From the NCBI GenBank assembly GCA_000004985.1, contig GG738860.1: 64,000 nucleotides of DNA; one strand, written 5' to 3'. The translations under genes were made by a program, and so were the position numbers. Under the pieces are notes generated by a model. It worked only from the letters and a program-made list of their open reading frames with translations. It had not been told where the DNA came from and did not search any database. Numbering within the stretch: the first letter of the stretch is position 1; the number at the start of each line of letters is the position of its first letter. Origin of the DNA: Naegleria gruberi. Taxonomy: Eukaryota. This document shows, one piece after another, positions 13,842-46,200 of the stretch.

Positions 13842-15320
13842 ATGAGTGTATTGATTAGTACATCACTAGGTGATTTTGTAGTTGATTTGTGGATTGAAGA
13901 ATGTCCATTTACTTGTTTTAATTTCCTCTCCCTCTGTAAAATTAAATACTATAATAATTGTAAAATATTTAATATTGAAAAGAATGCTTGGTTTCAAACA
14001 GGTGATCCATCATCCAATAACAATGATGAAAATGTAGGAAAGGGAGGACATTCCATCTTTCATCTCATTGAAAAATATAAACATGAAAAGGTGTTGAAAA
14101 AACCACTCACGGAAAACATTTACTTTAATGATGAAATTAATTTACTAAAGAAACATAATATGGAAGGCTTACTTTGTATGGCCAATAAGGATGGAAAACC
14201 AAATACCAATGCTAGTCAATTTTATGTCACTACTAGTGGCAGACATTTGGATTATTTGGATGGAAAACATACAATTTTTGGAAGAGTAGAAGAAGGAATG
14301 GAAGTTATTAAAGCAATTGATAGATTATATACGGAAAAGAAGAATGATATGGAAATTCCAATTCAAACTGTTAGAATAAGACATACACAAATTCTCTTTG
14401 ATCCATTTGAGGAGGAAGAATCTTTTAGGAAACAATTTGAAGAGTTTTTGGATGGTGTCAGTCTTTTAATTCCACCTAGCAGTCCTCTTCCTATTAGAGA
14501 TGATGAAATTATTGAAATATCTAAAGAAAAACTCACACTAGAGGAGAAACCAACTGAAAATAAGCGTCTCTCCAAAGAAGAATATGAAGCAAAGAAGGAA
14601 AGAGAGGCTAAATCAAAGGCTATTGTATTAGAAATGATAGGAGATTTACCAGATGCTGACGTCAAGCCACCAGATAGTGTTCTCTTTGTTTGTAGACTCA
14701 ATCCAATCACCTCAGAGAAGAGTCTTCGAACAATCTTTTTACAATACGGTAATATTGTAAAATGTGAAATTGTTAAAAACAGAAAGACTGGAAAGAGCAA
14801 AACTTATGCATTCATTGAATTTGAAGATGCTGAATCCTGTGAGCGAGCCTTCCTCAAATCTGAAGGATTAGTCATTGATGATCACAAGATTCACGTCGAC
14901 TTTTCTCAATCCATTGCCCATCTGTGGGCTCAGAATGAGAAGGAAAAAAAGCAGGCCGAAACATCACCACAACGACATGGAAATGACAAGGAAAGAAATG
15001 ATCGTCACCATGATAATAGAAGGGATAATAGAGATTACAACGATGATCATTATGGAAGAGAACATAGGAATTCCCATAAATCTGAATCGTCAAGTCATCA
15101 CAATAGAAGTTATAGAGATGATTATCATAGAGACTATAGGGATGATAGAAGAGATTACAGAAGGGATGATAGAAGGGATTACAGAGATGATAGAAGAGAC
15201 AACAGAGACCACAGAGATGACAGAAGATTGGACTCTGATAATAAGAGAAAGTACAATGATGACCACAAGTCAGAGAGAAGATTCAATGACTATGACCAAA
15301 ACAAAAAGCAAAAACGATAA
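13842..15320 (+). CDS. ppil4: Peptidyl-prolyl cis-trans isomerase-like 4 (cyclophilin domain + RRM + Arg/Asp-rich tail)
   Basis: N-terminal cyclophilin-like domain: MSVLISTSLGDFVVDLW...LLCMANKDGKPNTNASQFYVTTSG...GKHTIFGRVEEGMEVIKAI. Then an RRM: LFVCRLNPITSEKSLRTIFLQYGNIVKCEIVKNRKTGKSKTYAFIEFED. Then an RD/RDDY repeat tail. This matches the PPIL4 architecture. Confidence 0.85.
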   Translation: MSVLISTSLGDFVVDLWIEECPFTCFNFLSLCKIKYYNNCKIFNIEKNAWFQTGDPSSNNNDENVGKGGHSIFHLIEKYKHEKVLKKPLTENIYFNDEINLLKKHNMEGLLCMANKDGKPNTNASQFYVTTSGRHLDYLDGKHTIFGRVEEGMEVIKAIDRLYTEKKNDMEIPIQTVRIRHTQILFDPFEEEESFRKQFEEFLDGVSLLIPPSSPLPIRDDEIIEISKEKLTLEEKPTENKRLSKEEYEAKKEREAKSKAIVLEMIGDLPDADVKPPDSVLFVCRLNPITSEKSLRTIFLQYGNIVKCEIVKNRKTGKSKTYAFIEFEDAESCERAFLKSEGLVIDDHKIHVDFSQSIAHLWAQNEKEKKQAETSPQRHGNDKERNDRHHDNRRDNRDYNDDHYGREHRNSHKSESSSHHNRSYRDDYHRDYRDDRRDYRRDDRRDYRDDRRDNRDHRDDRRLDSDNKRKYNDDHKSERRFNDYDQNKKQKR

Positions 15321-20837: not shown

Positions 20838-22362
20838 ATGTTGGCCATTCATCATCATCACAAACAACAAGAACACGAATTGGAAAGTCTAAAACAAAAT
20901 TATAAATTTAATATTGAAGCAGTTTTTGATCATGAAAGTGCTCGTGATTGTTTCCGAAAGTTTTTAAAGGATAATTTGAATGAAGATCCTTTCATGTTTT
21001 ATGAAATGGTTGAAAAGTATCAAAAAACAAGATTGGACAAGAATAGATTTGATATGGCTGTGGAAATTATGAATACTTTTATTGTTGTGAGTGCCAAACA
21101 TGAATTAAACTTGTCAATGACTATTAGAAATGATATTCTAAAGAATTGGAAGGTGATTCAGGAGCTAAATGAAGGGAAATCTGCTGAATTAATGGAATGT
21201 CCAACTGACTTGTTCCAAAAAGCTCAGAATGTCATCTTTTCCGAATTGAAACAAGATAATTTTCCAAGATTTATCGATTCTGAACAATTTGTAAAATATT
21301 TAAAGAAGGAAGCTAGAAAATCACAATTCAAGGGCTCACCAGCAACATTGTTAGACTTGTTGGGATCGAAAAAGGCAATGGAAAGGTCAGATAGTGGTCT
21401 ATCACATGAATTGACTGAATCCGGCTCTTTGGAAGACATGTCAGTGGTAGAAAACAAACCTTCAACTATTGCAGATAATGATAGACCTCTTGTTGATCCA
21501 CATTCTGTCTACATTTCATCAAAGGATTATGATATTGTGAATGAATTGATTTCTTCATTGAATGATAGTAGTAGATGGAAAGTAGTTGAAGAAAAGACAG
21601 GTATGAAAACATTGACCAGTGCTCATAATTATTATCTGAACCCATCAGATGGAGCTCTTCCTTTAATTTGTTTCACTGGTCTCGCTAAGGGAAATCACAA
21701 GGAATTATTTAATTTGATTTTTTCACAACATTTCGAAAAGAAAATGAGTGCTCTCCAAAAGAGGAAATTACAATTGGACTATATCAAAATTAATCCAGAG
21801 AATGGTGTGGATTATCCTAATTCAATAATTTACTCGGAACTCGATGTATGTATTCTTTTCAATTCTCAAATAATAATTAATTGAATTATTACAACAGACT
21901 CACTTTCCAATATCTAAAAGAGACCTAGTACTAGCCAAGACAGTTATACCAGATCTTTACAATCCAGAAACTGATGATTTTGATCGATATTCCATAATTC
22001 AGAAACCATGCACTCATCAAGATGCTCCAATCTCTAAGGAATTTATCAGAGTTTCACTCTTCTCAGCAATAATTGTAGAGAAAAAGACTAATGACACTTT
22101 GAGATACTACATGTTTGATTTTATGGATTTGAAAGGAAAAGTTCCAAAGAAACTCTTATCAGGAATTGCACGTTTTGCTGCTAAGGAATTTCATAAATAT
22201 CTCCAAAAACAATTTATCAATCCCAGAGATGGACGAATCAAATCACCCTCAGCCGATTCACCAACAGAAGAAGAATTATATAGCTCTGAAGGAATGGTTG
22301 AGTTGCTTCATGATCATATCAATTACATTCGAGAACACATTCTCCCAAAGAATACACTCTAA
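20838..22362 (+). CDS. RGS-domain protein with C-terminal START/Bet-v1-like lipid-binding domain, 2 exons (paralog A)
   Basis: Exon 1 is 20838..21845 (ends ...SELD at a GTATGT donor). The intron 21846..21897 is 52 nt. Exon 2 is 21898..22362. RGS signature: FDHESARDCFRKFLKDNLNEDPFMFYEMVEKYQK. The C-terminal exon (...YYMFDFMDLKGKVPKKLLSGIARFAAKEFHKYLQKQF) looks like a START domain end. A paralog lies at 49633..51190 on the minus strand. Confidence 0.65.
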
Positions 22363-22981
22363 TTTGTCTAAATTTAATTATGTTGTGAAGGACAAGTTTT
22401 TTGATAAACATAAATTCAAAGAGATTTATTATTGGAATCATAACTAAGGAAAGAAAGCATGTTATATGATGTTTGAAGTTTCAATTTCGATTTGATCAGA
22501 AAATAGAAAATGAGAAACCAAAACTTGCATCCATCAATTCAGGAGTTAAATATTCAATTTATAGAAGGGTGATCAACCTAATCAATATCTTCAAACAAAA
22601 CCTGAACCAACAAGATTCTGTCTTCGTTGCCTTCACTGTTCATACAGTCAAAGACTGTAGCGGGATTGTCGTCATATTCCTGGCAGGCTTCCCGTCCAAT
22701 GAAACCTAAAAGAATATCCAAAAATTAATGTTACTAAATTGTTAATAACTTAATTACTGAAAGTTTGTATTGAGTTGGTCGTGGATCGATTACAGAGCTT
22801 AATAGGTTAACCACTTTAAGTATTACTAAGTAGCATTAAGTTTTGCAAAGAAGTTCCATATTCTTTATATTCATTGCATTGATTTACCTTTGCTATTAAT
22901 CGTGACTCGTTATATTTGGAAAAGATTCGTCGTGCCAATGCTATCATGTTAATGGACACAATGGAAGATGATGAACTGAAT

Positions 22982-23100
22982 GGCTACGGCCATATCACGA
23001 TGAATGCACCTCATCCCGTCCGATTTGAGAAGTTAAGCATCGTCGAGCCACATCAGTACTGAGGTTGGAGACAACTTGGGAACCTGTGGTGCTGTAGTCT
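22982..23100 (+). rRNA. 5S ribosomal RNA gene (copy 1)
   Basis: GGCTACGGCCATATCACGATGAATGCACCTCATCCCGTCCGATTTGAGAAGTTAAGCATCGTCGAGCCACATCAGTACTGAGGTTGGAGACAACTTGGGAACCTGTGGTGCTGTAGTCT is 119 nt. Helix I pairs 5' GGCTACGG with 3' CTGTAGTC. It is very similar to D. discoideum 5S (CATCCCGTTCGATCTGATAAGT...AGTACTCTGGTTGGAGACAAC...GGGTGCTGTATACT). A T5 run follows at 23114..23118, consistent with a Pol III terminator. Confidence 0.85.
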
Positions 23101-23617
23101 ATTTAAATTCAACTTTTTAGATGTCGATTTTCAGAACAATTTGAAAGTTCAATAAACTTGTGAATAATTAATGCTTCAAAGCTTATAAAAAGTTTAACCA
23201 CAATTATTAATAGATTTTAAATTAATTGAATACATAGAGAGATCAACATTCATCATTCCATAGCAATCACACTGCAATCCAACAACCAAAGGTATCAGCA
23301 AAAGGCAACTTATGGGTTAGGGTATTCGATTGCTGTGAAGTGGGTACACTAGCTCAGTTGTCTTTTTTTCTATTTCCCAATCAATGAGTGCTTTTGGAGT
23401 ATGTTGATACATTTATTATTTACAAACTTTTTTGTTACAAATTTCAATCGAAATGCCTGAGAAATTTTTTAAAATGAAAGTGCCCAATCATTGATTATTT
23501 TCTCTATGGTTTTAAGAAATGAAACTTTGAAAATTGAATCTTAGCTAGATTACATATAATTTATCATATAATGATAAAATTAAATGTCAAATATAGGAGA
23601 TGGAGTCAAAAATTAAT

Positions 23618-23688
23618 CTCGAGTGCCGGGAATTGAACCCGGGTCGCCAGAGTGACAGTCTGGAATGCTACCACTATACCACACCCGA
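23618..23688 (-). tRNA. tRNA-Asp (anticodon GUC), copy 1
   Basis: Minus strand: TCGGGTG TG GTAT AGTGGTA GCAT T CCAGA CTGTCAC TCTGG CGAC CCGGG TTCAATT CCCGG CACTCGA G. It has a 7-bp acceptor stem (one G-U), a perfect anticodon stem, U33, GTC anticodon, A37, and a T-arm with TTCAATT loop. One D-stem mismatch. A T5 run follows the 3' end. Confidence 0.8.
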
Positions 23689-24251
23689 TTTCACATGTTG
23701 TATCACCAGTAACAGTATTTGTAGTTGTTCAAACGGATTACCATAAAAGGAACCTTAGTGTTTCTTTTTAATATAATTATACTTACATATATGTATACCT
23801 ACTGAGAATGGATCCATACAATCGATTACTCCAACGAACTAAATTTTGAATCTGCTAATTGTCAACAAATGATATTGTTAAACAAAATACAAACACTATG
23901 AAATGCACAACTTCATTCTAAACATTGTATTAGAAAAATTGGAAATAGGAAAGAATCGGTAAAATTGTCTCATAGTGATTCTCTCTTGTTTATGGCCATA
24001 AATACTTTTTTGGACAGTTTCGTATGAAATTGGGTTTTGTAATATTTATTTTCTATGACATGTCATGCATAATTTCTTGTACTTGCCATCTCAATGGCAC
24101 ACAAGGGTCACAACAAATTTTTTCTTCAAGAGGCACCACCTCCTTCTTGCTTGTTATTTCCAAATTTAAACTATGCGTGCTGTCAATAAACTGAAAAGCA
24201 AATGTCAAATGTTTTCTCTTCATCGCTTAAAAAAACAAACACACAATAACA

Positions 24252-27200
24252 ATGGCAATTGGAATCTCGTTCATTCCTTTGGCTAGTTACACAATTTTGT
24301 GTATTATCATGCTAATTGTTGTTGGTGGTGGACATGTTTCGTCAACATTAGCTGAAGAAACTAAACCTTTCCCAGTAATGAGAATGTTTAATTTGAAAGC
24401 AAGCCATCATTCCACCTCCACAACAAGTGATGATTCCATCTCCATGGTTTTAGGAAAGATTAAACAACTTCCTTTCATCCCAACTACCATGCACCCATTC
24501 ACCAGCAATTCCCAATTGACCAAAGCAATCGCTTCAGATCCTTACGATTTGGCTGAATATCCTCACTATAAGAAAGTCTCTGAACAACAAGTTAGAAGCA
24601 TGTACTCTAATATTGTCAATAGCAAAGCATCTAAAAGAAGTATCAAGAAAAATCTTGACATGTTGGTTACAGAAAGTGTTGATTATGTCAACTTGAATGA
24701 TGTTTCTCGTTTTTCAGCAATGGGATCTTTGCATAGATATTCTGTTGATGCAAATGTTTTATCAGGTGTTGCTTCATTGGATTATGAGCAAAATGTATGG
24801 GATGTCACATGTTCTGTCCTGTCAGATGAACAAACTGAAATTGTTGTTGATTTTGCAAATGGTCATACAACTGCCATGAAATGGGTACCAGGTACAAGAA
24901 TTATCATTGGAAAGCAATGGAATTGTTATGGTGATTTGACTGATCAACTTTACAATAAGGATCAAGCAAGATTTTACTTGATTTTGACAAGATCTATTAT
25001 CGTAACAGATGAAAACATGTTGAGAATTAAATTCCTCACACAACCACTCACCTTCTCTCAATTATTTATGAATGGTAGAGTTGAATATTCTTCCACACCT
25101 CTCTTGACAGAATCTTTGGACGAAACTAATGTTTTCACTCAAGGTGCATCTTCAAGAAGTCTCAGATCAAGAAAGGCACAATTTTCTTACACTAAAAGAA
25201 TGGCAGCATTCAATTTCAATTACAATGATGCAACTGGTCAACCTGTCAATGATGAAGTTACCATGTATGATCAGGATGGTTTGAAAATTATTTGTGAAAA
25301 GTGTTATGCTTATTTGAATACCGAATTCAGAGTAGAATTTGAGTTTTCATGGACTCAATTACAAGTTACCAAGGCAGAAGCATCTGTCGGTGGTCAATGG
25401 AAGGCAACTGCCAATGTCAAGGCCAGTATTACAAAATCTTTCCAAAAAAAGATTGGTCCAAACACTATTATTCAAACTCCACCAATTGGTTTGACATTCT
25501 TCATTTGGGTAATTCCAGTTTATGTAGATTTCACTCCAAAACTTCAATATTCCTTCAATTTCCAATTGACTGGTACTTTGGAATATTCCAGAAAGTTTGA
25601 TATGGCCTATGAGAAGTATATTGGTTTCTCATATACACCAGAAGCAGGTTATAATAAGGTTACTAGAGGTGATGATGCCATTTCCTTCACAAGTTCTTCA
25701 CCTGGTCTTCGTATTGAGCTCGATGGGTCAATTGAGGTTGCACTCATTCCAGCATTGGATATTACTTTCTATAAATTGGCAACAGTTTCGATTGGAATTG
25801 TGCCATCTTTGAAAGCAGATTTACATGCAGAAGGTATCATTTCCTCACTTGATAATTACAAGGCATTCGTTAGTGTCAAATGTTCTTACAAGATTGGTTT
25901 GACATTTGATGTTTTAATCAAGAACTTTGAATTTACTTTATTAGATTATCAACCAATTGAAAAATTGAGTGGAACCTATTCCATCCAATCAGCATCCTAC
26001 AAGGCAATCAATCCAAATGATCAAATCTATTCCAAAGATAATTTACTCCCAACCATTCCAGACACAGCAACAACTTCCAACACCATGTTCTCATTCGAAA
26101 TTAGTGGATTGACAGGTAATTACTACATGGAATATCAATATCAAGATATCAAATTGAGCCCATTGCTATACAGAACTGCACCAACTCAATCCTGTGTTTC
26201 AGGTTCTGTCTGTAAAATTGCCGAATTGAAACCTGACTTTAGTTATTCCTATCTTTACTTTAGATTTTTGAAGGATGTTCCATTGTGGTTTGATGATACT
26301 GTATTGGTGGATTATATTGAGCAGAAGAATTATGTTACTACTCAATCGAGTCAAACCATATTTGGTAATACTAATGCTAAAGTTATTGTAAAGCCAACTG
26401 ATTTGACAATTTCATTTTCGAATACTCCAACTAATTCGTTTAAATTACCAACTGGTATTAGTACTATTAATGTAAAATTATCTCCAATCAATAGTTTGTA
26501 TTACATTTCATTTACAACAGATAGTGCCATTTCCATCACAAACGTTGCCATGCAATTTAGCTCAGATTCGAATGGTTTCCATTATGCTTTCAATGGAACT
26601 CTTCCTGGAGGTACAATTTTAATTTCAAATTCTGTTTCTGACAATAATTTGAAATTCCATCAATATTTCTCATTTGATTTGACAAAGGAGAAACAAACTT
26701 TAACTCCGGCACCAACTCCTATTACAAGTATGAATGCTATTAGTTCATTCCTACAAGTGGTAAAGAAGAATTCTCCAAGATATGCCGTCTCTGCAAAGAT
26801 TAAAGGTAATTTCGTTGTCATGATCTTTGAAGGTTGGGACAATGGAGTTTCTTTCGTTCAAACTAAAGGAAGAAAGTTTAGTCAAACCTCAATTCCTATT
26901 AAGAATGGAAATGTCACTCTCACTGAGCCATTATCTTATTACTGGACTATTTCCATGGAAAATGACTTTGGTTCATCGAGTCATTACATTGCAGCTCAAT
27001 TCCTTCCTGTTGATTCGTATGGTTTCATATTGGAAAGTGTCAAGATTGATCCATATACTGAATTGAGTGTTTCAAGTTCTAATACTTTGGAGGATGTAGA
27101 CAATGCCATTATTAATCAAGTTTCTAGCGTTAATTTGTATCCTTACATGGCAGTTTCTAGACCAGATTCGAATAGTTTCACTGCCAGATTAGGTAACTCT

Positions 27201-28610
27201 GTATTTGATGTTTTTAACAATTTAAAGTCTCAAATCTCACTTTCCATTCAAAAATCTGCTCGTATCCCCATTGACAATTCCTATCTCAACGCCGACGGCT
27301 CATTAGCTCTTTCACTTTCCTCCTCAGCCAACGTTACAATCTTTAACAATTACAAATTATTGAATGGTATGGCATCTGTTGGAAAGAAATTCGAAAGTGC
27401 ACTTTCATTTGCAGTTTCATGTGATACCTTATTGAGTGTTATTGGTGATTTGAGTAGATCTGGTGATATTTTCATTAGAATTTTGGATGGGTTGACCAAT
27501 AGAGCTCTTGAAAATAGAGGATTTTCCATTAGTTTGGAATTGGCAAAACCAAACTCTGATATAGTTTCAATTCATATGGTTAATTCCAAATCTGGTTTGA
27601 ATGAGGCATTGTTTAATGTTGATTCACCTTCTAAAATCTTGAGTTCATGCAATTCGAATCCAACCTATTATGTCAGAGTTATTCTCACACGTTTGGATGT
27701 TTCTCTCTCAAGTAAGACAGTTCAAGTAGAATTCTCGTTCAGTAAGAAGGTTCTTAGCACTCTCCCACAAACAAGAAGTATTCTATCCGAATCCATTGAT
27801 CCAAAGACGAAAGGTATTTCCATTTTGGATTTGAGTGATTTAATTCAAAAAGAAAAGAGTTTGGGAAGTATTGGTATTGTATTGCAAGCTAATACTCAAA
27901 ACTGCAATATTGACATGTATATTAATAGTAATAATGCAAGTGCTCCTCCATCTTTCTTTGATCCAGCAACAATATTCGATTCCACTTCAAGAAATTCCCT
28001 CACTTATGAAGCATTGCCAATTTCCTTCCTTTCTTCATATGGTTCCAGTGTCATGCTTTATTCTGAAAGTGCATGTACTTTTGATTTATCCTATTCTCAA
28101 TTGAAACTTACCTATTTGACAATGAAATTTATAGATTTGAAGGGAAGTGCAGTTGATAGTGTGATTTTCTATTCAAACACCTCAACAACCATTCAATTAC
28201 TTATCAATGATGAAAATCATTCATTCGAAAAGACTTGGGTAACTTCACTTCAATCAAATCCATCATTGATTTTCTCAATTTTCAAATCTACAAAGAAATC
28301 AGATGGAACAGCAGCTAAATTGAGTGATTATTTCAAGAGTGCTGTTTGTAATTTAGTTAATGCTCAAACTCTTCAATTCGAAATGATTCCAAAGAGTGGA
28401 GTTGTCTTTACCAATATTTTATCAATTGAATTCAATGCTCAAAATTCAATGTTCACATCAAGATATAATTTGAGATCATCAAATGTTGTTAGTTTGGGAG
28501 AGAATGTTCAACCTATTGTTTACAAATCTACATCTTCTGGTCAACCAAAGGGAGGACAATCTGGAAGAATGAATGGAGGAAATGGCTTGAATTTGTTGTT
28601 GGTTTGTTAA
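24252..28610 (+). CDS. Large secreted or surface protein of unknown function (1452 aa; signal peptide, S/T/N-rich, possible GPI-type C-terminus)
   Basis: Single uninterrupted 4.36-kb ORF. N-terminal signal peptide or anchor: MAIGISFIPLASYTILCIIMLIVVGGGHVSS. It is rich in predicted beta-strand-like alternating segments with many N-x-S/T sites. It ends ...GQPKGGQSGRMNGGNGLNLLLVC, a short hydrophobic tail after a Gly/Ser-rich stretch. No known domain was recognised by eye. Its 5' flank is the shared 5S/tRNA repeat. Confidence 0.6.
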   Translation: MAIGISFIPLASYTILCIIMLIVVGGGHVSSTLAEETKPFPVMRMFNLKASHHSTSTTSDDSISMVLGKIKQLPFIPTTMHPFTSNSQLTKAIASDPYDLAEYPHYKKVSEQQVRSMYSNIVNSKASKRSIKKNLDMLVTESVDYVNLNDVSRFSAMGSLHRYSVDANVLSGVASLDYEQNVWDVTCSVLSDEQTEIVVDFANGHTTAMKWVPGTRIIIGKQWNCYGDLTDQLYNKDQARFYLILTRSIIVTDENMLRIKFLTQPLTFSQLFMNGRVEYSSTPLLTESLDETNVFTQGASSRSLRSRKAQFSYTKRMAAFNFNYNDATGQPVNDEVTMYDQDGLKIICEKCYAYLNTEFRVEFEFSWTQLQVTKAEASVGGQWKATANVKASITKSFQKKIGPNTIIQTPPIGLTFFIWVIPVYVDFTPKLQYSFNFQLTGTLEYSRKFDMAYEKYIGFSYTPEAGYNKVTRGDDAISFTSSSPGLRIELDGSIEVALIPALDITFYKLATVSIGIVPSLKADLHAEGIISSLDNYKAFVSVKCSYKIGLTFDVLIKNFEFTLLDYQPIEKLSGTYSIQSASYKAINPNDQIYSKDNLLPTIPDTATTSNTMFSFEISGLTGNYYMEYQYQDIKLSPLLYRTAPTQSCVSGSVCKIAELKPDFSYSYLYFRFLKDVPLWFDDTVLVDYIEQKNYVTTQSSQTIFGNTNAKVIVKPTDLTISFSNTPTNSFKLPTGISTINVKLSPINSLYYISFTTDSAISITNVAMQFSSDSNGFHYAFNGTLPGGTILISNSVSDNNLKFHQYFSFDLTKEKQTLTPAPTPITSMNAISSFLQVVKKNSPRYAVSAKIKGNFVVMIFEGWDNGVSFVQTKGRKFSQTSIPIKNGNVTLTEPLSYYWTISMENDFGSSSHYIAAQFLPVDSYGFILESVKIDPYTELSVSSSNTLEDVDNAIINQVSSVNLYPYMAVSRPDSNSFTARLGNSVFDVFNNLKSQISLSIQKSARIPIDNSYLNADGSLALSLSSSANVTIFNNYKLLNGMASVGKKFESALSFAVSCDTLLSVIGDLSRSGDIFIRILDGLTNRALENRGFSISLELAKPNSDIVSIHMVNSKSGLNEALFNVDSPSKILSSCNSNPTYYVRVILTRLDVSLSSKTVQVEFSFSKKVLSTLPQTRSILSESIDPKTKGISILDLSDLIQKEKSLGSIGIVLQANTQNCNIDMYINSNNASAPPSFFDPATIFDSTSRNSLTYEALPISFLSSYGSSVMLYSESACTFDLSYSQLKLTYLTMKFIDLKGSAVDSVIFYSNTSTTIQLLINDENHSFEKTWVTSLQSNPSLIFSIFKSTKKSDGTAAKLSDYFKSAVCNLVNAQTLQFEMIPKSGVVFTNILSIEFNAQNSMFTSRYNLRSSNVVSLGENVQPIVYKSTSSGQPKGGQSGRMNGGNGLNLLLVC

Positions 28611-28789
28611 TGACAATCTTGTTGAATATTGTTTTATTGTTGTAATTGAATAAAAACTTCATCTATTCATTGAATGATCATTGTGTATTAATGAATAATA
28701 ATAATTAATATTGAATTTAAATTGAAACACGGAAATGAAATTCTAAGATAGTAATTCCGAATACAAAAACAAAGAAAGACAAAACAAAA

Positions 28790-28870
28790 CGTTGAGGATG
28801 GGATTCGAACCCACGCGGATTACTCCACCAACTTAGCAGGCTGGCGCCTTAACCACTCGGCCACCTCAAC
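28790..28870 (-). tRNA. tRNA-Ser (anticodon GCU), class II with long variable arm
   Basis: Minus strand: GTTGAGG TG GCCGAGTGGTTAAGGC G CCAGC CTGCTAA GTTGG TGGAGTAATCCGCG TGGGTTCGAATCCCATCCTCAAC G. It has a 7-bp acceptor stem, GCT anticodon with U33 and A37, and a T-arm identical to eukaryotic tRNA-Ser. It is followed by TTTT. Confidence 0.85.
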
Positions 28871-29154
28871 TTCATGGCTAAACTAAGAAAATACTAAAGT
28901 CATGGTACGACAATCAAACCCTTAATGAACAGCTTCTTTTTCGTATCAACTGTTGAGGTGTTATTGGTTAGATTGTTTAATTGTTCAATACTGATTTAAG
29001 CTGTTTCTTAGGAGTATCACTTATCTTTCATTTGGTGGCCAAAGAATCTGTGTTCAACATACTGCTATAGATTAGATTCAGCCATTCAAATTTCAACAAA
29101 AGAAAGTATTGATTGATACCTCCGATTTCAGATAATATTTAATAAATTGCTGTT

Positions 29155-29820
29155 TTATTGAAGAACCTTCCCACAAGTCAACATGGAATGATCTTTACAA
29201 ACATTAGTTCGTCCATTCAAACTATACGTAAAACTATTAGCACTGCAACTTTCATCCTTCAAATAATAAGACCTTGTCCAAGTTGTTTGATTGCAGGAAA
29301 CCCTTTCGAATTCCTTTCCAGTAACTTGTTCACAATAATTTACATCTTCTCCAGCAATTGAAACCAAATTCCCAGAACAACTATTCTCTGCATCTATATA
29401 TTCAAATGAATAGGTGTACAATAAAGGAACTACAAGTTGTGGAATATTTCCACATCCGACATTTTGCATTCCACATTCATTCTTGTGAAATTTCCAATCG
29501 TAGACAGCATCACAATATTGGCAGTTACTGTCTACACAGTATGTATAGATGGTGGCTGAATCCTTTCCACAAACTGCCTTCATGTATTTGAAATGGGATG
29601 AGCTTTCAAAGTTTTGGAAACAAGTTCCATTTTGTCCATAAACAGGATAGATTTCAATAGCTGAAATAGATTGTTGATTGCATGAATTATCATGGTAGTA
29701 GATGGAGTAGGCGAAAGTGGTTGGTTTTTCGAGGGGTTGTTTTGCATGCAAGAAGGAAATGATTGCAAGAATGATGAAGAAGGTACAGAGGGAATAGTTT
29801 AGTTTCATCATTTTTTTCAA
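29155..29820 (-). CDS. Secreted cysteine-rich protein (221 aa, ~20 Cys), unknown family
   Basis: Signal peptide MKKMMKLNYSLCTFFIILAIISFLHA followed by a Cys-rich mature region (CNQQ...CFQNF...CGKDSATIYTYCVDSNCQYCD...CGMQNVGCGN...). Single ORF. Antisense small ORFs were rejected. Confidence 0.5.
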   Translation of the reverse strand: MKKMMKLNYSLCTFFIILAIISFLHAKQPLEKPTTFAYSIYYHDNSCNQQSISAIEIYPVYGQNGTCFQNFESSSHFKYMKAVCGKDSATIYTYCVDSNCQYCDAVYDWKFHKNECGMQNVGCGNIPQLVVPLLYTYSFEYIDAENSCSGNLVSIAGEDVNYCEQVTGKEFERVSCNQTTWTRSYYLKDESCSANSFTYSLNGRTNVCKDHSMLTCGKVLQ

Positions 29821-30569
29821 GTACTGATGTTCATCTACGCCAAATTAGCAAATATGTGTTCGAATGCCAAATCATGTCCTTCCTTATCATCTCCGTAGAA
29901 GAAGAGGTGTTTTGAAATAATGTCCATGCACAACCACATAGTGGTTCTATTTACGACGAATACCAAGCTTCTTTAACGAATATCCTTGCGAAGAGAAAGT
30001 TATAAATATTACAATACATCATCGCTTCAAAGGGGTTGTGCTTGCTGATATTGAATGATGTTGTATTATTGTCTTGTTGTTGTTACTCCGTTCATTGTCC
30101 ACAGTCAGGAAAAGTATTATAAATTTTTTTCTATATTATTAAATTATTATTTTGACAAAGAGGAGCAAGCAGGAACGAAACAAAACCAACAAAATGTATT
30201 CAATTTAATTGTTCAGGGTAAAGAAGAAAGAAAATTACTTGATATTGATTTTGACTTTTTTATTTAAATGTTTTTGGATTTTTAATTTTTTAAACAAGTC
30301 ACTCTTCTAGGATTATGTAAATATCAAGTTATTGTTGTTAGACTTGATAAATCCGAGAATCATCATTGGACCTGTTCTTTCAAAGTATGAGTAAATATAT
30401 CTTGAATAGTAACTACATGTTGTGTTAAAATTTGTATAAAAACTCTACAAGTGCTTTCGCAAAGTAATCTTAAACTGTACCAGTGATATGTGAAATGAAA
30501 TGGTTAATCAACAAAGATTGTGATCAGTTTCAACACAATCTTCTCCGCATCATTTCTCTAGTTTGATGT

Positions 30570-31334
30570 TTAAGCATTGGTCAATCTAGTCTTCAAGACA
30601 CGATCTTCCAAACAAACACAAAAGCTTGGAATATTGACAGTCTTTGGAAGTGGGCTGTTAATAGCAAAACAATCCCAATCATCTTCTTCTCTATCTTCAT
30701 CATTTACCAATTCAACTTCAATTTCATCACCTCTGACAGCAATAACTTTACCCAATTTACCTTGTAATTGTGGATCGACACTTTGGAGTAAAGCCATTTC
30801 ATCATCAACATTGATGAGGACTGTATCATTCTTCTTGAGTAATCTGCTTGTATTAGTATTAGAAACAAATCTCTTAATAGTTGATGATGAAGAAATAATT
30901 GAAGCACTTCTTGTAGATTGCATCTTCTTTTGCTTGTGAATACCTCTTGCTGTTGTATTATTTGATGATTGCATCATGGACATGAAGGAAATTCCCTGAT
31001 GTGGTTTATAAGATGAGGAGTACATATCCATTGAGGAATCATTATTATTCATCATTTGGTTACCAGTGGCATTAACTCTTTTCAAGAACATTTTGTATTG
31101 CGTTGTTGTTGGTTGCGTTGTTTTTTTTCGATGTGAAAATGTCTGATCGTTTTCCATAAATTTATTGCGTTTGTGCAAGTTCCACAAGCAACTGGCTTCC
31201 GCTGCGTGTTCAAAATCGAGCTTAAAATAGAACTTCAAAAATGTTTTGCTGCATACGGAATTCGTTTGGGCGCCAAAGAATTTGATGAGTGTGGAAAAAG
31301 GATTCCGTGAGAGTGAATCTTTTCTGCAAATCAA
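30570..31334 (-). CDS. Hypothetical protein (S/N/T-rich, acidic C-terminal beta-barrel-like segment); start codon uncertain (internal Mets at MENDQ / MFLKRV possible)
   Basis: 254-aa minus ORF. The C-terminal segment LINVDDEMALLQSVDPQLQGKLGKVIAVRGDEIEVELVNDEDREEDDWDCF looks globular. The remainder is low complexity. No family was assigned. Confidence 0.35.
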   Translation of the reverse strand: MICRKDSLSRNPFSTLIKFFGAQTNSVCSKTFLKFYFKLDFEHAAEASCLWNLHKRNKFMENDQTFSHRKKTTQPTTTQYKMFLKRVNATGNQMMNNNDSSMDMYSSSYKPHQGISFMSMMQSSNNTTARGIHKQKKMQSTRSASIISSSSTIKRFVSNTNTSRLLKKNDTVLINVDDEMALLQSVDPQLQGKLGKVIAVRGDEIEVELVNDEDREEDDWDCFAINSPLPKTVNIPSFCVCLEDRVLKTRLTNA

Positions 31335-31835
31335 AAAGATTGATCATCAATCTTTATGAAGCTATTACAATAATTGATTGTATTATCATTATTCAAATGA
31401 TCAACCACAAAAGATACAGTAAAGGTACCATTCCGAATATCACGACTATATGATTTGGTAAAGGTAGAGATGACTGATAGTTGAACAGCTTTCCATCTCA
31501 ACTGAAATTATCGGAAATTAATCTTCATCCAACAACATTCAATAATATTATTATTGAAAACAGTCTGCTTCATCCACTTTGAAATTAATAGAAACAACTT
31601 CTTCTACAACATTCAATATAATATTGAAAACAGCACTGCTTCATTGCCTTACTTGGTTTGGCTTCATTATAAACGCACTTTTCATTCCCTCACTAGAACT
31701 AGGGCTTTAAGGATTAGAACAGTACAACTATGGTTCATTGTTCGTGTCTCCTCTCCCTAACCTCAATAATGCAGGAATAATAATCCAACAACCAGAAGGA
31801 TAGAACATCAAGAGAAAAAAAGCTTTTGAGAAGAG

Positions 31836-33029
31836 ATGAATTATCTCCTTCAGGGATTTTCAGAAAAATCTTCATCTACTAACCAATCAATAATGAAAAA
31901 CAAGTCAAGAAAGGGGTGGAGCAATGCACTGTTCCTCCTTAACTACTTTATCATCATGATGATAATTTTACAAATATCAACCAATTACTACTGTTTGGCC
32001 ATTCCGAATGACAAGAACAAAACCCCTACATGTAAGAATGGAAGGCTTATTACAAATACCACTACTCCTCAACAATTTGCCTCAACCAAATGTTCATGTT
32101 TTAAGGGATATTCGGGAAGTGATTGTAACATACCAGTTTGTTTTGGATTGAAGGCAAGTTCAAAATCTGTATGTGGTGGCAAAGGTAACTCCAAATGTAT
32201 TGCTCCAGATACATGCATTAAAATCAATGAAGCAACAATCATGAAGCGATTTCAATCCAATGCTAAAGAGGACAGTTCATGTTCCAATCGTGGTCAAATG
32301 AGTAATGGTCAATGCATATGTAGTGAGGGATTCTATGGAGAATCTTGCGAATATTCTAATTGTTATGATACAGCTAGCCAGCTCACTTGTAGTGGAAGAG
32401 GAGAATGCTCCTCTGATAATATTTGCACTTGTAGAGAGAATGATATGTTTGGCGATAGATGTCAATACACACTCCCAGATAAGATTTATCAAAATGATGT
32501 TTGTGGGTCATGTATCATTGTGGCTGGTGTCAGTGGAGATGCTATTCCATCGAAGTATTCACTCTTGAACAATCCTACTGGACTATTTGTGGATGAAACA
32601 ACTGGTTTCATCTTTTTCGCAGATCAAGGCAATGCAAAGGCAAGAGTTCTCACAAGGGATGATACTATCTATTCGATTGCCTCTGTTTCCACACCAACTA
32701 GTATAGCATTCGATAAGAAAACAAGAGATGTCTATATTGGTACTAGAAATGGACTATTCAAATTGAACAGCAAGAGAGAACTCTCTAAATTGAACAGCTT
32801 GTATTGTAGCAGTGTCATTGTTAATGGTCAGGGACATGTTGTGTTTACACAGGGACCATATAACAAGATTTCAAAACTTGTAAATGGTGTGCAAGTTGAG
32901 GTGGCAGGGGATAATGACGGCGAAGGAAAATATGATGGTGACAACAAAGTGGCAACGGATGCAAGTGTCAACAATCCAGCTTATTTGAGCTACCATGCTG
33001 ACTCTGATACAATTTACTTTATGGACAGA
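31836..33029 (+). CDS. N-terminal fragment of a receptor-like protein: signal peptide, tenascin-type EGF-like Cys repeats, start of an NHL-repeat beta-propeller; truncated by assembly gap. Probably the 5' part of the receptor kinase resuming at 43232
   Basis: Begins MNYLLQGF..., with a hydrophobic signal or anchor (WSNALFLLNYFIIMMIILQISTNYYCLA). EGF-like modules follow (CSCFKGYSGSDCNIPVCFG..., CICSEGFYGESCEYSNCYD...CTCRENDMFGDRCQ). NHL-like blades come next (LLNNPTGLFVDETTGFIFFADQGNAKARVL...NNPAYLSYHADSDTIYFMDR). The frame is then cut by the 50-N gap at 33030. Confidence 0.6.
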
Positions 33030-33079
33030 NNNNNNNNNNNNNNNNNNNNNNNNNNNNNNNNNNNNNNNNNNNNNNNNNN
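33030..33079. other. Assembly gap (50 N)
   Basis: A run of exactly 50 N separates the receptor gene fragment from the second 5S/tRNA unit. Confidence 1.
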
Positions 33080-33087
33080 AACTGAAT

Positions 33088-33206
33088 GGCTACGGCCATA
33101 TCACGATGAATGCACCTCATCCCGTCCGATTTGAGAAGTTAAGCATCGTCGAGCCACATCAGTACTGAGGTTGGAGACAACTTGGGAACCTGTGGTGCTG
33201 TAGTCT
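33088..33206 (+). rRNA. 5S ribosomal RNA gene (copy 2)
   Basis: Identical to 22982..23100 (offset 10106 bp). Confidence 0.85.
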
Positions 33207-33723
33207 ATTTAAATTCAACTTTTTAGATGTCGATTTTCAGAACAATTTGAAAGTTCAATAAACTTGTGAATAATTAATGCTTCAAAGCTTATAAAAAGTT
33301 TAACCACAATTATTAATAGATTTTAAATTAATTGAATACATAGAGAGATCAACATTCATCATTCCATAGCAATCACACTGCAATCCAACAACCAAAGGTA
33401 TCAGCAAAAGGCAACTTATGGGTTAGGGTATTCGATTGCTGTGAAGTGGGTACACTAGCTCAGTTGTCTTTTTTTCTATTTCCCAATCAATGAGTGCTTT
33501 TGGAGTATGTTGATACATTTATTATTTACAAACTTTTTTGTTACAAATTTCAATCGAAATGCCTGAGAAATTTTTTAAAATGAAAGTGCCCAATCATTGA
33601 TTATTTTCTCTATGGTTTTAAGAAATGAAACTTTGAAAATTGAATCTTAGCTAGATTACATATAATTTATCATATAATGATAAAATTAAATGTCAAATAT
33701 AGGAGATGGAGTCAAAAATTAAT

Positions 33724-33794
33724 CTCGAGTGCCGGGAATTGAACCCGGGTCGCCAGAGTGACAGTCTGGAATGCTACCACTATACCACACCCGA
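33724..33794 (-). tRNA. tRNA-Asp (anticodon GUC), copy 2
   Basis: Identical to 23618..23688. Confidence 0.8.
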
Positions 33795-34261
33795 TTTCAC
33801 ATGTTGTATCACCAGTAACAGTATTTGTAGTTGTTCAAACGGATTACCATAAAAGGAACCTTAGTGTTTCTTTTTAATATAATTATACTTACATATATGT
33901 ATACCTACTGAGAATGGATCCATACAATCGATTACTCCAACGAACTAAATTTTGAATCTGCTAATTGTCAACAAATGATATTGTTAAACAAAATACAAAC
34001 ACTATGAAATGCACAACTTCATTCTAAACATTGTATTAGAAAAATTGGAAATAGGAAAGAATCGGTAAAATTGTCTCATAGTGATTCTCTCTTGTTTATG
34101 GCCATAAATACTTTTTTGGACAGTTTCGTATGAAATTGGGTTTTGTAATATTTATTTTCTATGACATGTCATGCATAATTTCTTGTACTTGCCATCTCAA
34201 TGGCACACAAGGGTCACAACAAATTTTTTCTTCAAGAGGCACCANCTCCTTCTTGCTTGTT

Positions 34262-37200
34262 NNNNNNNNNNNNNNNNNNNNNNNNNNNNNNNNNNNNNNN
34301 NNNNNNNNNNNNNNNNNNNNNNNNNNNNNNNNNNNNNNNNNNNNNNNNNNNNNNNNNNNNNNNNNNNNNNNNNNNNNNNNNNNNNNNNNNNNNNNNNNNN
34401 NNNNNNNNNNNNNNNNNNNNNNNNNNNNNNNNNNNNNNNNNNNNNNNNNNNNNNNNNNNNNNNNNNNNNNNNNNNNNNNNNNNNNNNNNNNNNNNNNNNN
34501 NNNNNNNNNNNNNNNNNNNNNNNNNNNNNNNNNNNNNNNNNNNNNNNNNNNNNNNNNNNNNNNNNNNNNNNNNNNNNNNNNNNNNNNNNNNNNNNNNNNN
34601 NNNNNNNNNNNNNNNNNNNNNNNNNNNNNNNNNNNNNNNNNNNNNNNNNNNNNNNNNNNNNNNNNNNNNNNNNNNNNNNNNNNNNNNNNNNNNNNNNNNN
34701 NNNNNNNNNNNNNNNNNNNNNNNNNNNNNNNNNNNNNNNNNNNNNNNNNNNNNNNNNNNNNNNNNNNNNNNNNNNNNNNNNNNNNNNNNNNNNNNNNNNN
34801 NNNNNNNNNNNNNNNNNNNNNNNNNNNNNNNNNNNNNNNNNNNNNNNNNNNNNNNNNNNNNNNNNNNNNNNNNNNNNNNNNNNNNNNNNNNNNNNNNNNN
34901 NNNNNNNNNNNNNNNNNNNNNNNNNNNNNNNNNNNNNNNNNNNNNNNNNNNNNNNNNNNNNNNNNNNNNNNNNNNNNNNNNNNNNNNNNNNNNNNNNNNN
35001 NNNNNNNNNNNNNNNNNNNNNNNNNNNNNNNNNNNNNNNNNNNNNNNNNNNNNNNNNNNNNNNNNNNNNNNNNNNNNNNNNNNNNNNNNNNNNNNNNNNN
35101 NNNNNNNNNNNNNNNNNNNNNNNNNNNNNNNNNNNNNNNNNNNNNNNNNNNNNNNNNNNNNNNNNNNNNNNNNNNNNNNNNNNNNNNNNNNNNNNNNNNN
35201 NNNNNNNNNNNNNNNNNNNNNNNNNNNNNNNNNNNNNNNNNNNNNNNNNNNNNNNNNNNNNNNNNNNNNNNNNNNNNNNNNNNNNNNNNNNNNNNNNNNN
35301 NNNNNNNNNNNNNNNNNNNNNNNNNNNNNNNNNNNNNNNNNNNNNNNNNNNNNNNNNNNNNNNNNNNNNNNNNNNNNNNNNNNNNNNNNNNNNNNNNNNN
35401 NNNNNNNNNNNNNNNNNNNNNNNNNNNNNNNNNNNNNNNNNNNNNNNNNNNNNNNNNNNNNNNNNNNNNNNNNNNNNNNNNNNNNNNNNNNNNNNNNNNN
35501 NNNNNNNNNNNNNNNNNNNNNNNNNNNNNNNNNNNNNNNNNNNNNNNNNNNNNNNNNNNNNNNNNNNNNNNNNNNNNNNNNNNNNNNNNNNNNNNNNNNN
35601 NNNNNNNNNNNNNNNNNNNNNNNNNNNNNNNNNNNNNNNNNNNNNNNNNNNNNNNNNNNNNNNNNNNNNNNNNNNNNNNNNNNNNNNNNNNNNNNNNNNN
35701 NNNNNNNNNNNNNNNNNNNNNNNNNNNNNNNNNNNNNNNNNNNNNNNNNNNNNNNNNNNNNNNNNNNNNNNNNNNNNNNNNNNNNNNNNNNNNNNNNNNN
35801 NNNNNNNNNNNNNNNNNNNNNNNNNNNNNNNNNNNNNNNNNNNNNNNNNNNNNNNNNNNNNNNNNNNNNNNNNNNNNNNNNNNNNNNNNNNNNNNNNNNN
35901 NNNNNNNNNNNNNNNNNNNNNNNNNNNNNNNNNNNNNNNNNNNNNNNNNNNNNNNNNNNNNNNNNNNNNNNNNNNNNNNNNNNNNNNNNNNNNNNNNNNN
36001 NNNNNNNNNNNNNNNNNNNNNNNNNNNNNNNNNNNNNNNNNNNNNNNNNNNNNNNNNNNNNNNNNNNNNNNNNNNNNNNNNNNNNNNNNNNNNNNNNNNN
36101 NNNNNNNNNNNNNNNNNNNNNNNNNNNNNNNNNNNNNNNNNNNNNNNNNNNNNNNNNNNNNNNNNNNNNNNNNNNNNNNNNNNNNNNNNNNNNNNNNNNN
36201 NNNNNNNNNNNNNNNNNNNNNNNNNNNNNNNNNNNNNNNNNNNNNNNNNNNNNNNNNNNNNNNNNNNNNNNNNNNNNNNNNNNNNNNNNNNNNNNNNNNN
36301 NNNNNNNNNNNNNNNNNNNNNNNNNNNNNNNNNNNNNNNNNNNNNNNNNNNNNNNNNNNNNNNNNNNNNNNNNNNNNNNNNNNNNNNNNNNNNNNNNNNN
36401 NNNNNNNNNNNNNNNNNNNNNNNNNNNNNNNNNNNNNNNNNNNNNNNNNNNNNNNNNNNNNNNNNNNNNNNNNNNNNNNNNNNNNNNNNNNNNNNNNNNN
36501 NNNNNNNNNNNNNNNNNNNNNNNNNNNNNNNNNNNNNNNNNNNNNNNNNNNNNNNNNNNNNNNNNNNNNNNNNNNNNNNNNNNNNNNNNNNNNNNNNNNN
36601 NNNNNNNNNNNNNNNNNNNNNNNNNNNNNNNNNNNNNNNNNNNNNNNNNNNNNNNNNNNNNNNNNNNNNNNNNNNNNNNNNNNNNNNNNNNNNNNNNNNN
36701 NNNNNNNNNNNNNNNNNNNNNNNNNNNNNNNNNNNNNNNNNNNNNNNNNNNNNNNNNNNNNNNNNNNNNNNNNNNNNNNNNNNNNNNNNNNNNNNNNNNN
36801 NNNNNNNNNNNNNNNNNNNNNNNNNNNNNNNNNNNNNNNNNNNNNNNNNNNNNNNNNNNNNNNNNNNNNNNNNNNNNNNNNNNNNNNNNNNNNNNNNNNN
36901 NNNNNNNNNNNNNNNNNNNNNNNNNNNNNNNNNNNNNNNNNNNNNNNNNNNNNNNNNNNNNNNNNNNNNNNNNNNNNNNNNNNNNNNNNNNNNNNNNNNN
37001 NNNNNNNNNNNNNNNNNNNNNNNNNNNNNNNNNNNNNNNNNNNNNNNNNNNNNNNNNNNNNNNNNNNNNNNNNNNNNNNNNNNNNNNNNNNNNNNNNNNN
37101 NNNNNNNNNNNNNNNNNNNNNNNNNNNNNNNNNNNNNNNNNNNNNNNNNNNNNNNNNNNNNNNNNNNNNNNNNNNNNNNNNNNNNNNNNNNNNNNNNNNN

Positions 37201-43200: not shown

Positions 43201-43231
43201 NNNNNNNNNNNNNNNNNNNNNNNNNNNNNNN
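34262..43231. other. Assembly gap (8970 N)
   Basis: Continuous N run. All giant ORFs reported across it (34130..43276, 34159..43266, 34171..43431, 34197..43394, 34200..45386, 34232..43288) are poly-X artefacts. Confidence 1.
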
Positions 43232-46200
43232 TACTGGAACAATTGCCAAAGTCTTTTCTGCTCCATACGGTGTTAAAAGCTTCCACAAACTTGAGAATGG
43301 TAATTTTATTTTCGCAGAGAAAAATTATCCTAGAATTGCCCTTTTCAAGACCAATAGCAGCAAGATTATCTACTTGGCTGGTCAATACGAACAAGGTTAC
43401 GATCCAATCGTTATTTCTGACAATGTGTTAGCAACCACAACAAGTGTGAATCATCCTCGATCACTCTATGTAAAGAATGGAGAGCTCTATTTTGCAGATA
43501 CCTACAACTCTCTCGTGAGAAAAATCACCCTCTCAACAGGAGTTCTCTCAACCATTGCTGGTAATGGAGGTGAGCGTTTTTATGGGGATGGTGGATTGGG
43601 AACGAGTGCTTCTTTGAACTATCCATATGGAATTCACTTACATACTGATGGTTCTATCTACATTGCCGATACTTACAATAGTAAGATTAGAAAGTTAGAC
43701 TCTTCCAAAAAGATTAGCTCAGTTGCTGGAAATGGATATTTGGGATATTCGGACAATACTCAACCATTGAGAGCTTCATTCAATTTGGCAGTAAGCGTTC
43801 TCATTAACAACGTAGGGGACATGTACATTTCAGATTATGCAAACAATGTAATTAGAAAGATGAGCTCCTCTGGTGCCATTACAACTATTGCTGGACAAGC
43901 AAAGATTTCTGGTTTTGCTGATAGTTTAAATGCAAAGACTGCTCTATTGAATGGTCCATTTGGATTATATTATCAGGAATCCACACAAACTCTCTTTTTT
44001 GCTGACAGTCTCAATGGTAGAATAAGAAAGCTAACAAAGAATGGAGCAATTGAAACAGTTCTTGCTTCAATTAACGATCCAAGAGAAATCTCATTCCACA
44101 CAACCCATGGTCACATGTACTTTACTTCTGGAGGTGACCAAACCATTAAGGTTCTATTCTCCAATGGTACTCTTTCTGTGCTCAACATTCCAAAAGATTA
44201 CTACATTGGTCTCCATGTTGATTCCACTAATGATTATCTCTATGCAAGTGGTTATACATACATTTATAGATTTTCCATTGCAGGAGGTAGTAGCATTGAT
44301 CACAATCAAACCGATCCAATCATCGATAACATTTCTAAGAATTGTACTAAGGGATGTGAAAAGGGTGAATGTGTGAATGGAACTTGCGTCTGTAAGGAAA
44401 ATTATGGAGGTGAAATTTGTGATAGGCCAATGTGTTTTGGAAAATTGAGCAATGAGAGTGGTGTGTGTAATACTCACGGAGTTTGTCTGCAACCAAACGT
44501 TTGCTACTGTTACGGAAATTGGGAGGCCGAAGAATGCACCCAATGTAAGAGTGGATTTACTGGTTCTAATTGCAGAACCTGTGCCGATGGTTTTGTTGGA
44601 GAATTGTGTAATATCCCTATTTGTTTCAACGTATTTGCTAATGAATCAAACGTTTGTTCTGGACATGGTTCTTGCAAATCTCCAAACAATTGTTCATGCT
44701 TTGGAAATTGGGAGGGAGAAAGTTGTCAATCTTGTAAGGAGGGATACACTGGCTCAGAATGTGACACTCCAGTTTGTTTCGGGTTCAGNNNNNNNNNNNN
44801 NNNNNNNNNNNNNNNNNNNNNNNNNNNNNNNNNNNNNNNNNNNNNNNNNNNNNNNNNNNNNNNNNNNNNNNNNNNNNNNNNNNNNNNNNNNNNNNNNNNN
44901 NNNNNNNNNNNNNNNNNNNNNNNNNNNNNNNNNNNNNNNNNNNNNNNNNNNNNNNNNNNNTGGGTTGGAGATTGTGTGATTCCTGTCAAGCTGGATACAG
45001 TGGTTCAAATTGTGATATTCCTGTTTGTTTTGGATCAAGCGTTGAAGGAGATGGTTCTTTGGTTTGCTCAGGGCACGGTAACTGTTCAGGACCAGATATG
45101 TGCACTTGTAACGAAAACTGGTCTGGAAATGATTGTTCCACTTGTAGAGAAGGTTATTATGGAGAAGACTGCTCCTCATGTACACCTGGATTCAGTGGTG
45201 AGAGATGTGACATTCCTTCATGCTTTGGTATTTCAGCAAATGCTAGTAATGTATGTTCTGGAAATGGTTATTGTTTCAGTCCAGATTTGTGCTCCTGCTT
45301 TGAGAATTGGAAGGGTGAAAGTTGTAATCAATGCAGTAGCGATTACATTGGTGAATTGTGTGATATTCCGTCCTGTTTTGGAGTGAATGGTAATGATAGA
45401 TCAGTTTGTTCTGGTCATGGCTCTTGTATTACCCCATCCAATTGTTCTTGTTTCAATAACTGGGAAGGAGCAATGTGTGAAAATTGTCCAACAGGTTTCT
45501 CTGGAGATGACTGCAAATCCTGTGACGAAAGTCACACTGGAGAGGGATGTGATGTTCCAATCTGTTACGGCCTTGCAGCTAATAATGAAAGTGTTTGCTC
45601 TGGAAATGGCAAGTGCATTGAGTCCTCTGTATGTGTTTGTTCTGGTTTTTGGACTGGAGCTAATTGTGATACTTGTCCAGAAAAGTATTCAGGATCGGCT
45701 TGTGATGTGCCAGTTTGTTATGGAGTAAGCGCTAACGATTCTATGGTTTGCTCTGGACATGGTTCTTGTGTTGCACCTTCTCAATGTTTTTGTGAAGGAA
45801 GATGGGCTGGAGAATTGTGTGATTCCTGCGTGGCTGGATATAATGGTTCAAATTGTGAAAATCCAATCTGCTTTGGAGAATTCAACACCTCTATTGTTTG
45901 TTCTGGTCATGGTTTGTGCTCAGCACTAGATGTTTGTGTGTGTAGCGAGCAATGGGCTGGAGAAACTTGTGGCAAATGTAATTCTGGATATTACGGAATA
46001 ACTTGTGAGCTTTCTTGTGATCCACAAATAGTGAAACCATCTCTCACAATCAAGCAAGGTTCAATAATTTCCTATGTGATTGGAACTTCTATTGCTTTGG
46101 AACCAGAATTGACAATTCCATTGTGCTATGCCGGTCATTTCAGCTCCATTAGCTATGGATATGCTTCTGATTTCTTTAACCAATCTCAACTGGTTCAGGT

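Follow-up and report, generated by a model that had tools for sequence, protein, structure and literature searches.

An intact chromosomal 5S rRNA gene of Naegleria gruberi, its tRNA-Asp neighbour, and a second copy between assembly gaps

The window—the whole 64,000-nucleotide stretch of Naegleria gruberi contig GG738860.1 analysed here, with a GC content of 33.8%—contains a real, structurally intact, chromosomal 5S rRNA gene at 22982-23100. We consider it very probable that this is an ordinary nuclear gene, one of about 279 chromosomal copies; the tRNA-Asp gene beside it most likely lies there by coincidence, and the second copy of the pair probably arose by tandem duplication. Dispersed chromosomal 5S genes are a documented state in Naegleria, and the biological significance of this copy is small. 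What is useful for re-assembly and re-annotation of the region is that the apparent 5S-tRNA module is one duplicated stretch, probably part of a collapsed 10.1-kb duplication. The coordinates of the features discussed are collected in Table 1.

Table 1. Features in and around the 5S gene (window coordinates, except for the Willaertia locus)
Feature	Position	Strand	Remarks
RGS-domain genes, inverted paralogous pair	20838-22360 and 49633-51190	+ and -	Repeat arms 20888-21418 / 50550-51080
Intergenic region with both Pol III genes	22361-24251	.	About 1.9 kb; RGS-domain gene 3' end to NAEGRDRAFT_79262 start
Duplication unit 1 (proposed), visible extent	22974-33029	+	5S, tRNA-Asp, 1452-aa orphan gene, tRNA-Ser(GCT), two small ORFs, NHL-EGF-kinase 5' part
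5S rRNA gene, copy 1	22982-23100	+	119 nt; RF00001 match; Table S1 R32435, scaffold_16:438985-439096 (PMC3369914)
TTTTT run, probable Pol III terminator of 5S	23115-23119	+	16-20 nt past 5S 3' end; read from sequence
T5 run after tRNA-Asp	23608-23612 (+ strand coordinates)	-	+6 to +10 downstream of tRNA
tRNA-Asp(GTC), copy 1	23618-23688	-	ARAGORN; RF00005 57.1 bits
tRNA-Ser(GCT)	28790-28870	-	
Assembly gap, 50 N	33030-33079	.	Under the duplication model spans the unit 1/unit 2 junction
Island between gaps	33080-34261	+	1,182 bp, 100% identical to 22974-24155; contains one N
5S rRNA gene, copy 2	33088-33206	+	Identical to copy 1; Table S1 R32729
tRNA-Asp, copy 2	33724-33794	-	Identical to copy 1
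Assembly gap, 8,970 N	34262-43231	.	Size fits the unassembled rest of a second 10.1-kb unit
tRNA-Thr(AGT)	49487-49560	-	
tRNA-Trp(CCA)	54313-54383	-	
Willaertia magna 5S	L002:17569-17687 (JBEGDK010000041.1)		98/119 identical to window 5S; 107.7 bits

The 5S gene and the dispersed family to which it belongs

The preliminary description had called a 5S gene here and proposed a covariance-model scan, and that scan bears the call out: the gene matches Rfam RF00001 on the plus strand over model positions 1-120 with 105.4 bits (E=4.4e-22; the curated gathering score is 38 bits), and no non-canonical pairs are flagged in the match. Folded by minimum free energy, the sequence adopts the three-way junction canonical for 5S rRNA (-41.5 kcal/mol, z=-2.6). 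When the window gene is aligned with nine other heterolobosean 5S sequences, the consensus structure comprises 39 pairs, 17 of them with compensatory changes; the window copy retains 39/39, and its helices are all undisrupted. Judged by its sequence the copy looks functional, and it may be a minority variant.

In Naegleria the rRNA genes reside on an extrachromosomal circular plasmid, with single 18S, 5.8S, and 28S genes (PMC12482156), while 279 putative N. gruberi 5S genes were reported in 2012 from the JGI Naegr1 assembly, not located with the rDNA unit (PMC3369914). Because the rDNA plasmid encodes only 18S, 5.8S, and 28S, 5S must be supplied by the chromosomal copies. Two entries in Table S1 of that report lie on scaffold_16, at 438985-439096 (R32435) and 449091-449202 (R32729); their spacing (449091-438985 = 10,106 bp) is identical to that of the two copies in the window (33088-22982), and the window is therefore scaffold_16 at about 416,001-480,000, with both copies already catalogued. 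The report is silent on the adjoining tRNA-Asp and on the second copy's position as an island flanked by gaps (PMC3369914).

The coordinates parsed from Table S1 give 279 hits over 117 scaffolds, with a median within-scaffold spacing of 33.9 kb and a minimum of 462 bp; adjacent 5S pairs lie within 2 kb in 9 cases, within 5 kb in 32, and within 15 kb in 52. The N. gruberi 5S family is dispersed, with loose and irregular local clusters. As a side observation, Table 1 of the same report scores the N. gruberi 5S genes as "tandem arrangement: yes", and its own Table S1 coordinates contain no regular short-period arrays (PMC3369914).

Chromosomal 5S genes had been put forward as an organisation different from that of Dictyostelium discoideum. 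Two elements of this proposal hold for Naegleria: the large rRNA genes are on an extrachromosomal element without 5S (PMC12482156, PMC3369914), and the window 5S is embedded among protein-coding genes in chromosomal DNA, between an RGS-domain gene and NAEGRDRAFT_79262. The novelty falls away, since this is the published state of N. gruberi and both copies are in Table S1 (PMC3369914). D. discoideum, like Naegleria, has its 18S, 5.8S, and 28S genes on a multicopy extrachromosomal element; however, its 5S gene is on the extrachromosomal rDNA palindrome, whereas the ~14-kb circular plasmid of Naegleria is without 5S—chromosomal 5S is thus the normal condition in Naegleria and not a departure. The two organisms also belong to different groups, D. 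discoideum being an amoebozoan and N. gruberi a heterolobosean (Discoba). The window gene is itself a member of the published N. gruberi 5S family, whose genes are reported to be chromosomal, unlinked to the rDNA unit, and equipped with an internal control region (PMC3369914). What distinguishes this copy is a single-base difference, T24, and a break in the proximal T-run.

The 5S sequence had also been described as dictyostelid-type. Two neighbour proteins are 100% identical to N. gruberi proteins, which places the window in Heterolobosea and not among the dictyostelids. One of them, encoded by ORF 13842-15320 (a PPIL4-type cyclophilin-RRM protein), is identical over its full length, with next best matches in N. 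lovaniensis (60%), Willaertia magna (56%), and Acrasis kona (45%); the other, the 1452-aa product of ORF 24252-28610 beside tRNA-Asp, is NAEGRDRAFT_79262. The gene order PPIL4-DUF747-TPR-RGS is common to the window and N. lovaniensis, and synteny ends at the first RGS gene. A search of 5.8 billion proteins returned no homologue of NAEGRDRAFT_79262 other than itself at E<=1e-5, and on this evidence we class it as an orphan gene.

Relatives of the 5S gene itself were collected with a 30-mer that is conserved in Willaertia, which retrieved 13 metagenome contigs with one 5S each. The closest 5S found, 118/119 identical to the window copy, is on a Naegleria-type metagenome contig (L007); the Willaertia magna gene follows with 98/119, and the remaining full-length metagenomic copies are 87-93/119 identical. 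The block that had been taken as diagnostic, GGTTGGAGACAAC, reads GATGGGAGACTTC in Willaertia and GGTGGGAGACCAC in other contigs, with the changes compensated on the opposite strand of helix IV; the other blocks cited are upper-case, universally conserved positions of the Rfam consensus. What the D. discoideum and window 5S sequences have in common is presumably an A/T-rich helix IV along with the loop and helix blocks that are universally conserved. Since the GGTTGGAGACAAC block is variable in relatives and the other blocks are universal, the resemblance to D. discoideum would reflect shared conservation and an A/T-rich helix, not affinity.

Two further observations concern these relatives. 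As in the window, a 5S gene lies near the PPIL4 gene in Willaertia, ~6 kb from the orthologue, with intervening genes that differ from those of N. gruberi; in a genome whose 5S genes are dispersed, this proximity is probably accidental. Another organism, represented by metagenome contigs L003-L006 and L008-L014 (accessions VFQM.../VFQO...), has a Naegleria-like 5S of ~76% identity in at least 10 dispersed copies with differing flanks. These copies differ among themselves by compensatory changes in helix III (TTGCGTAG/CTGCGCCAA, TTGTGTAG/CTGCACCAA, and TTGCATAG/CTGTGCCAA), and the differences look like functional micro-heterogeneity within one genome or population.

Transcription signals and expression

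On our analysis the window gene would be a standard Pol III type-1 gene for the 5S rRNA of cytoplasmic ribosomes, and the variant may be expressed. For the published N. gruberi 5S genes, a TATA box is reported in addition to an internal control region; TFIIIA was not detected (PMC3369914). In the window gene, AGTTAAGC at gene positions 49-56 fits the box A consensus used in that report, and a degenerate box C candidate at 23063-23078 has 2 mismatches to the corresponding consensus; no TATA-like motif is present in the sequence near -30. The box C consensus was dropped as promoter evidence for this gene, as with 2 mismatches it gives 8 matches where 5.2 are expected by chance, a frequency not above chance. 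The 3' flank has ATTT first and then TTTTT at +16 to +20; the proximal T-run is thus broken (CT-A-TTT), whereas relatives have at least 4 Ts immediately after the 3' end.

By analogy with the family, RNA polymerase III would transcribe the gene by way of its internal control region, comprising the box A-like AGTTAAGC and the degenerate box C. Transcription would probably end at the T5 run 16-20 nt downstream, leaving a 3' trailer of ~16-20 nt to be trimmed, and the folded 5S, with its three-helix junction, would then join the central protuberance of the large ribosomal subunit.

T24, the interrupted T-run, the lack of a TATA motif near -30, and the chance-level box C together mean that the window copy could be a weakly expressed or silent minority variant. 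Taken to its full extent, this would make the window copies dispersed pseudogenes or silent variants and leave the supply of expressed 5S to majority-type copies elsewhere, which we regard as unlikely. T24 does set the copy apart, as the nine other sequences in the alignment all have A at this position, and both window copies give a shorter BLAST match in Table S1 (112 nt at 0.746, where the majority class gives 117 nt at 0.75; PMC3369914), a shortening that fits a difference at the 3' end. However, position 24 falls in a loop and shows weak conservation in Rfam, and this sole change breaks no helix; the RF00001 score equals the level of the relatives (95-108 bits), and the gene still has a T5 run, 16 nt beyond its 3' end. 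These features argue for the reading preferred here, that of an ordinary family member.

The tRNA-Asp neighbour

The spacing and orientation that had been described for the two Pol III genes are confirmed: the 5S and tRNA-Asp genes are convergent, with 517 bp between their 3' ends (~520 bp in the preliminary description), and each is followed by a T-run. On its own strand, the 3' flank of tRNA-Asp(GTC) reads ATTAATTTTTG, which includes its T5 run. The intergenic interval that contains both genes has no ORF longer than 93 aa, and no further Rfam match at E<=1 that would indicate a third Pol III RNA. A mobile element was considered as the source of the 5S flanks and rejected, as they have no match elsewhere in the window or in the compared loci.

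The tRNA-Asp gene is best regarded as a Pol III unit of its own, convergent with the 5S and separately terminated. Co-transcription is expected of genes on the same strand with a short spacer and a single terminator; here the two genes face each other from opposite strands across 517 bp, each followed by a T5 run, and the convergent orientation and separate terminators exclude a dicistronic unit of the Yarrowia kind. In Yarrowia lipolytica, 5S genes are likewise scattered outside the rDNA and some adjoin tRNA genes, but there the tRNA immediately precedes the 5S on its strand and is transcribed together with it (PMC2566860), whereas the genes in the window are independent units. The tRNA array units of Entamoeba also combine 5S and tRNA in one repeated unit; however, those units are short and repeat many times in tandem, with microsatellite-like spacers (PMC2652664), in contrast to the present case of at most 2 copies of a 10.1-kb unit that is mostly protein-coding.

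Could the convergent pair nevertheless be a functional, recurrent Pol III module of Naegleria, dispersed as a unit and serving shared TFIIIC/TFIIIB recruitment or as a chromatin boundary? The closeness of the genes inside a 1.9-kb gene-free interval would suit such a module, as would the local richness in Pol III genes (4 distinct tRNAs and the 5S in ~45 kb of unique sequence, where the genome average is ~1 tDNA per 44 kb). We find the proposal highly improbable, and the claim of a dispersed 5S-tRNA module in the preliminary description is not sustained. Its only two instances belong to a single duplicated stretch, 100% identical between the copies; since both pairs go back to one event, they are not independent evidence. 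In the relatives sampled the association is missing: where the 3' flank extends to 700 bp or more, at the Willaertia locus and on eight metagenomic contigs, 0/9 heterolobosean 5S loci have a tRNA, the flanks of the nearly identical L007 copy are unrelated and hold no tRNA in 538 bp on the 3' side, and the syntenic N. lovaniensis region has neither 5S nor tRNA. Co-transcription, as set out above, is also ruled out by the arrangement of the genes.

Chance alone predicts a number of such pairs. We take the N. gruberi genome to be ~41 Mb in size. With this size and the 924 tDNAs reported for the genome (PMC2888827), the chance that a tDNA lies within 600 bp on either side of a given 5S gene is ~2.8%, so that ~8 of the 279 5S genes would be expected to have one, and a higher number if 5S genes and tDNAs occur in intergenic sequence alone. 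The adjacency of 5S and tRNA-Asp is most likely coincidental.

The second copy, the assembly gaps, and the surrounding genes

The second 5S/tRNA-Asp pair, 10,106 bp beyond the first, is on the island between the two gaps, and the island interrupts a gene. At 31836-33029, a gene for a protein with NHL repeats, EGF repeats, and a kinase domain (here the NHL-EGF-kinase gene) breaks off in the middle of an NHL repeat at ...DTIYFMDR; the sequence after the large gap (from 43233) opens in frame with TGTIAKVFS..., and the NHL repeats resume. A distant metagenomic homologue, P0126, aligns unbroken over this junction, from IYFMDR into TGTIAKV. In the NHL repeats of the protein there are 11-12 residues from the conserved D to the next (T/S/N)G motif, a periodicity which implies that ~10-11 residues (30-33 bp) are missing at the junction. 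Reading frame and homology both indicate that this is one NHL-EGF-kinase gene interrupted by gap, island, and gap.

We propose that the arrangement reflects a tandem duplication, recent and identical in sequence, whose unit of ~10.1 kb extends from ~22974 to ~33050. Unit 1 would end with the NHL-EGF-kinase gene truncated to its 5' part, and unit 2 would start with the 5S island; the identical interior of unit 2 would have collapsed onto unit 1 during assembly, giving rise to the 8,970-N gap. At the junction, sequence of the NHL gene (...TTTATGGACAGA...) would be joined to AACTGAATGGCTACGG. The model predicts the size of the second gap: (33029-24155 = 8,874) + ~30 gives ~8,905 bp, and the assembly has 8,970, a difference of 0.7%.

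The alternative is that the second copy is an assembly artefact, the island being a redundant small contig, built from surplus reads of 22974-24155, that was mis-scaffolded into the NHL-EGF-kinase gene, so that only one 5S/tRNA-Asp pair exists here. Several properties of the island would be expected on that account: its length is about that of one or two Sanger reads, its sequence matches the first copy at 100% identity, it has gaps on both sides and contains an N, and it interrupts an evidently continuous gene. We nonetheless judge an artefact somewhat unlikely. A misplaced redundant contig would not predict a gap of 8,970 bp, which is left unexplained, whereas the whole-unit prediction comes within ~65 bp of it. 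Each read is used once in an assembly, and a separate identical contig therefore implies extra read depth. Local 5S pairs are, moreover, common in N. gruberi, as the counts within 5 and 15 kb given above indicate. From gap size and gene continuity, a real ~10.1-kb tandem duplication, with the second copy at the start of its second unit, is the favoured reading and a probable one. The assembly gaps had been attributed to the 5S-tRNA sequence, and this stands in part only: a perfect 10.1-kb tandem duplication, or else a misplaced contig, fits better than the repetitiveness of 5S.

The first 5S copy starts 8 bp inside the visible left edge of the proposed 10.1-kb unit, and the other edge is within the NHL-EGF-kinase gene. 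A more speculative idea, which we rate as quite improbable, is that Pol III genes (5S and tRNA) serve as hot spots of fork pausing or recombination at which segmental duplications originate, and that the 5S family of Naegleria spreads by this route. If true, it would explain the loose, irregular 5S clusters (the 32 adjacent pairs within 5 kb; PMC3369914, Table S1) and also the presence of the 5S and of three of the four distinct tRNAs inside the block that extends from the end of the N. lovaniensis synteny to the inverted RGS paralogue. The 5S and tRNA-Thr genes are near the two edges of this block.

The RGS paralogues are inverted relative to each other; their repeat arms are 531 nt long and 87% complementary, and both genes are about equally similar to a single N. 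lovaniensis orthologue. We observe that the pair brackets a ~27-kb block with the 5S, three tRNAs, the orphan gene, and the kinase gene, and that a Pol III gene lies just past the 3' end of each RGS copy—the 5S for the first and tRNA-Thr for the second. The four distinct tRNAs of the window (Asp-GTC, Ser-GCT, Thr-AGT, and Trp-CCA) are all on the minus strand within ~45 kb of unique sequence, about 4 times the density implied by 924 tDNAs.

The large NHL-EGF-kinase gene (31836-33029 and 43233-49434) codes for a protein with a signal or transmembrane segment, EGF and NHL repeats, then many further EGF repeats, and lastly a transmembrane segment and a kinase, with the latter transmembrane segment and the kinase domain in the adjoining ORF 47329-49434. 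It is split by gaps at 33030-43231 and 44789-44960. The protein database has no identical N. gruberi model for this protein, the nearest N. gruberi entry being a paralogue, P0161, with 30% identity, and the protein search returned no close orthologue, only the distant metagenomic P0126 and the one N. gruberi paralogue; the gene is apparently unannotated because of the assembly gaps. Further downstream, a 72-bp tandem repeat at 56347-57222 is coding and lies in a gene for an LRR protein (56416-57522, minus strand), where it translates into ordinary 24-residue leucine-rich repeats, MKQLTSLDIxxNxIGDEGAKFISE.
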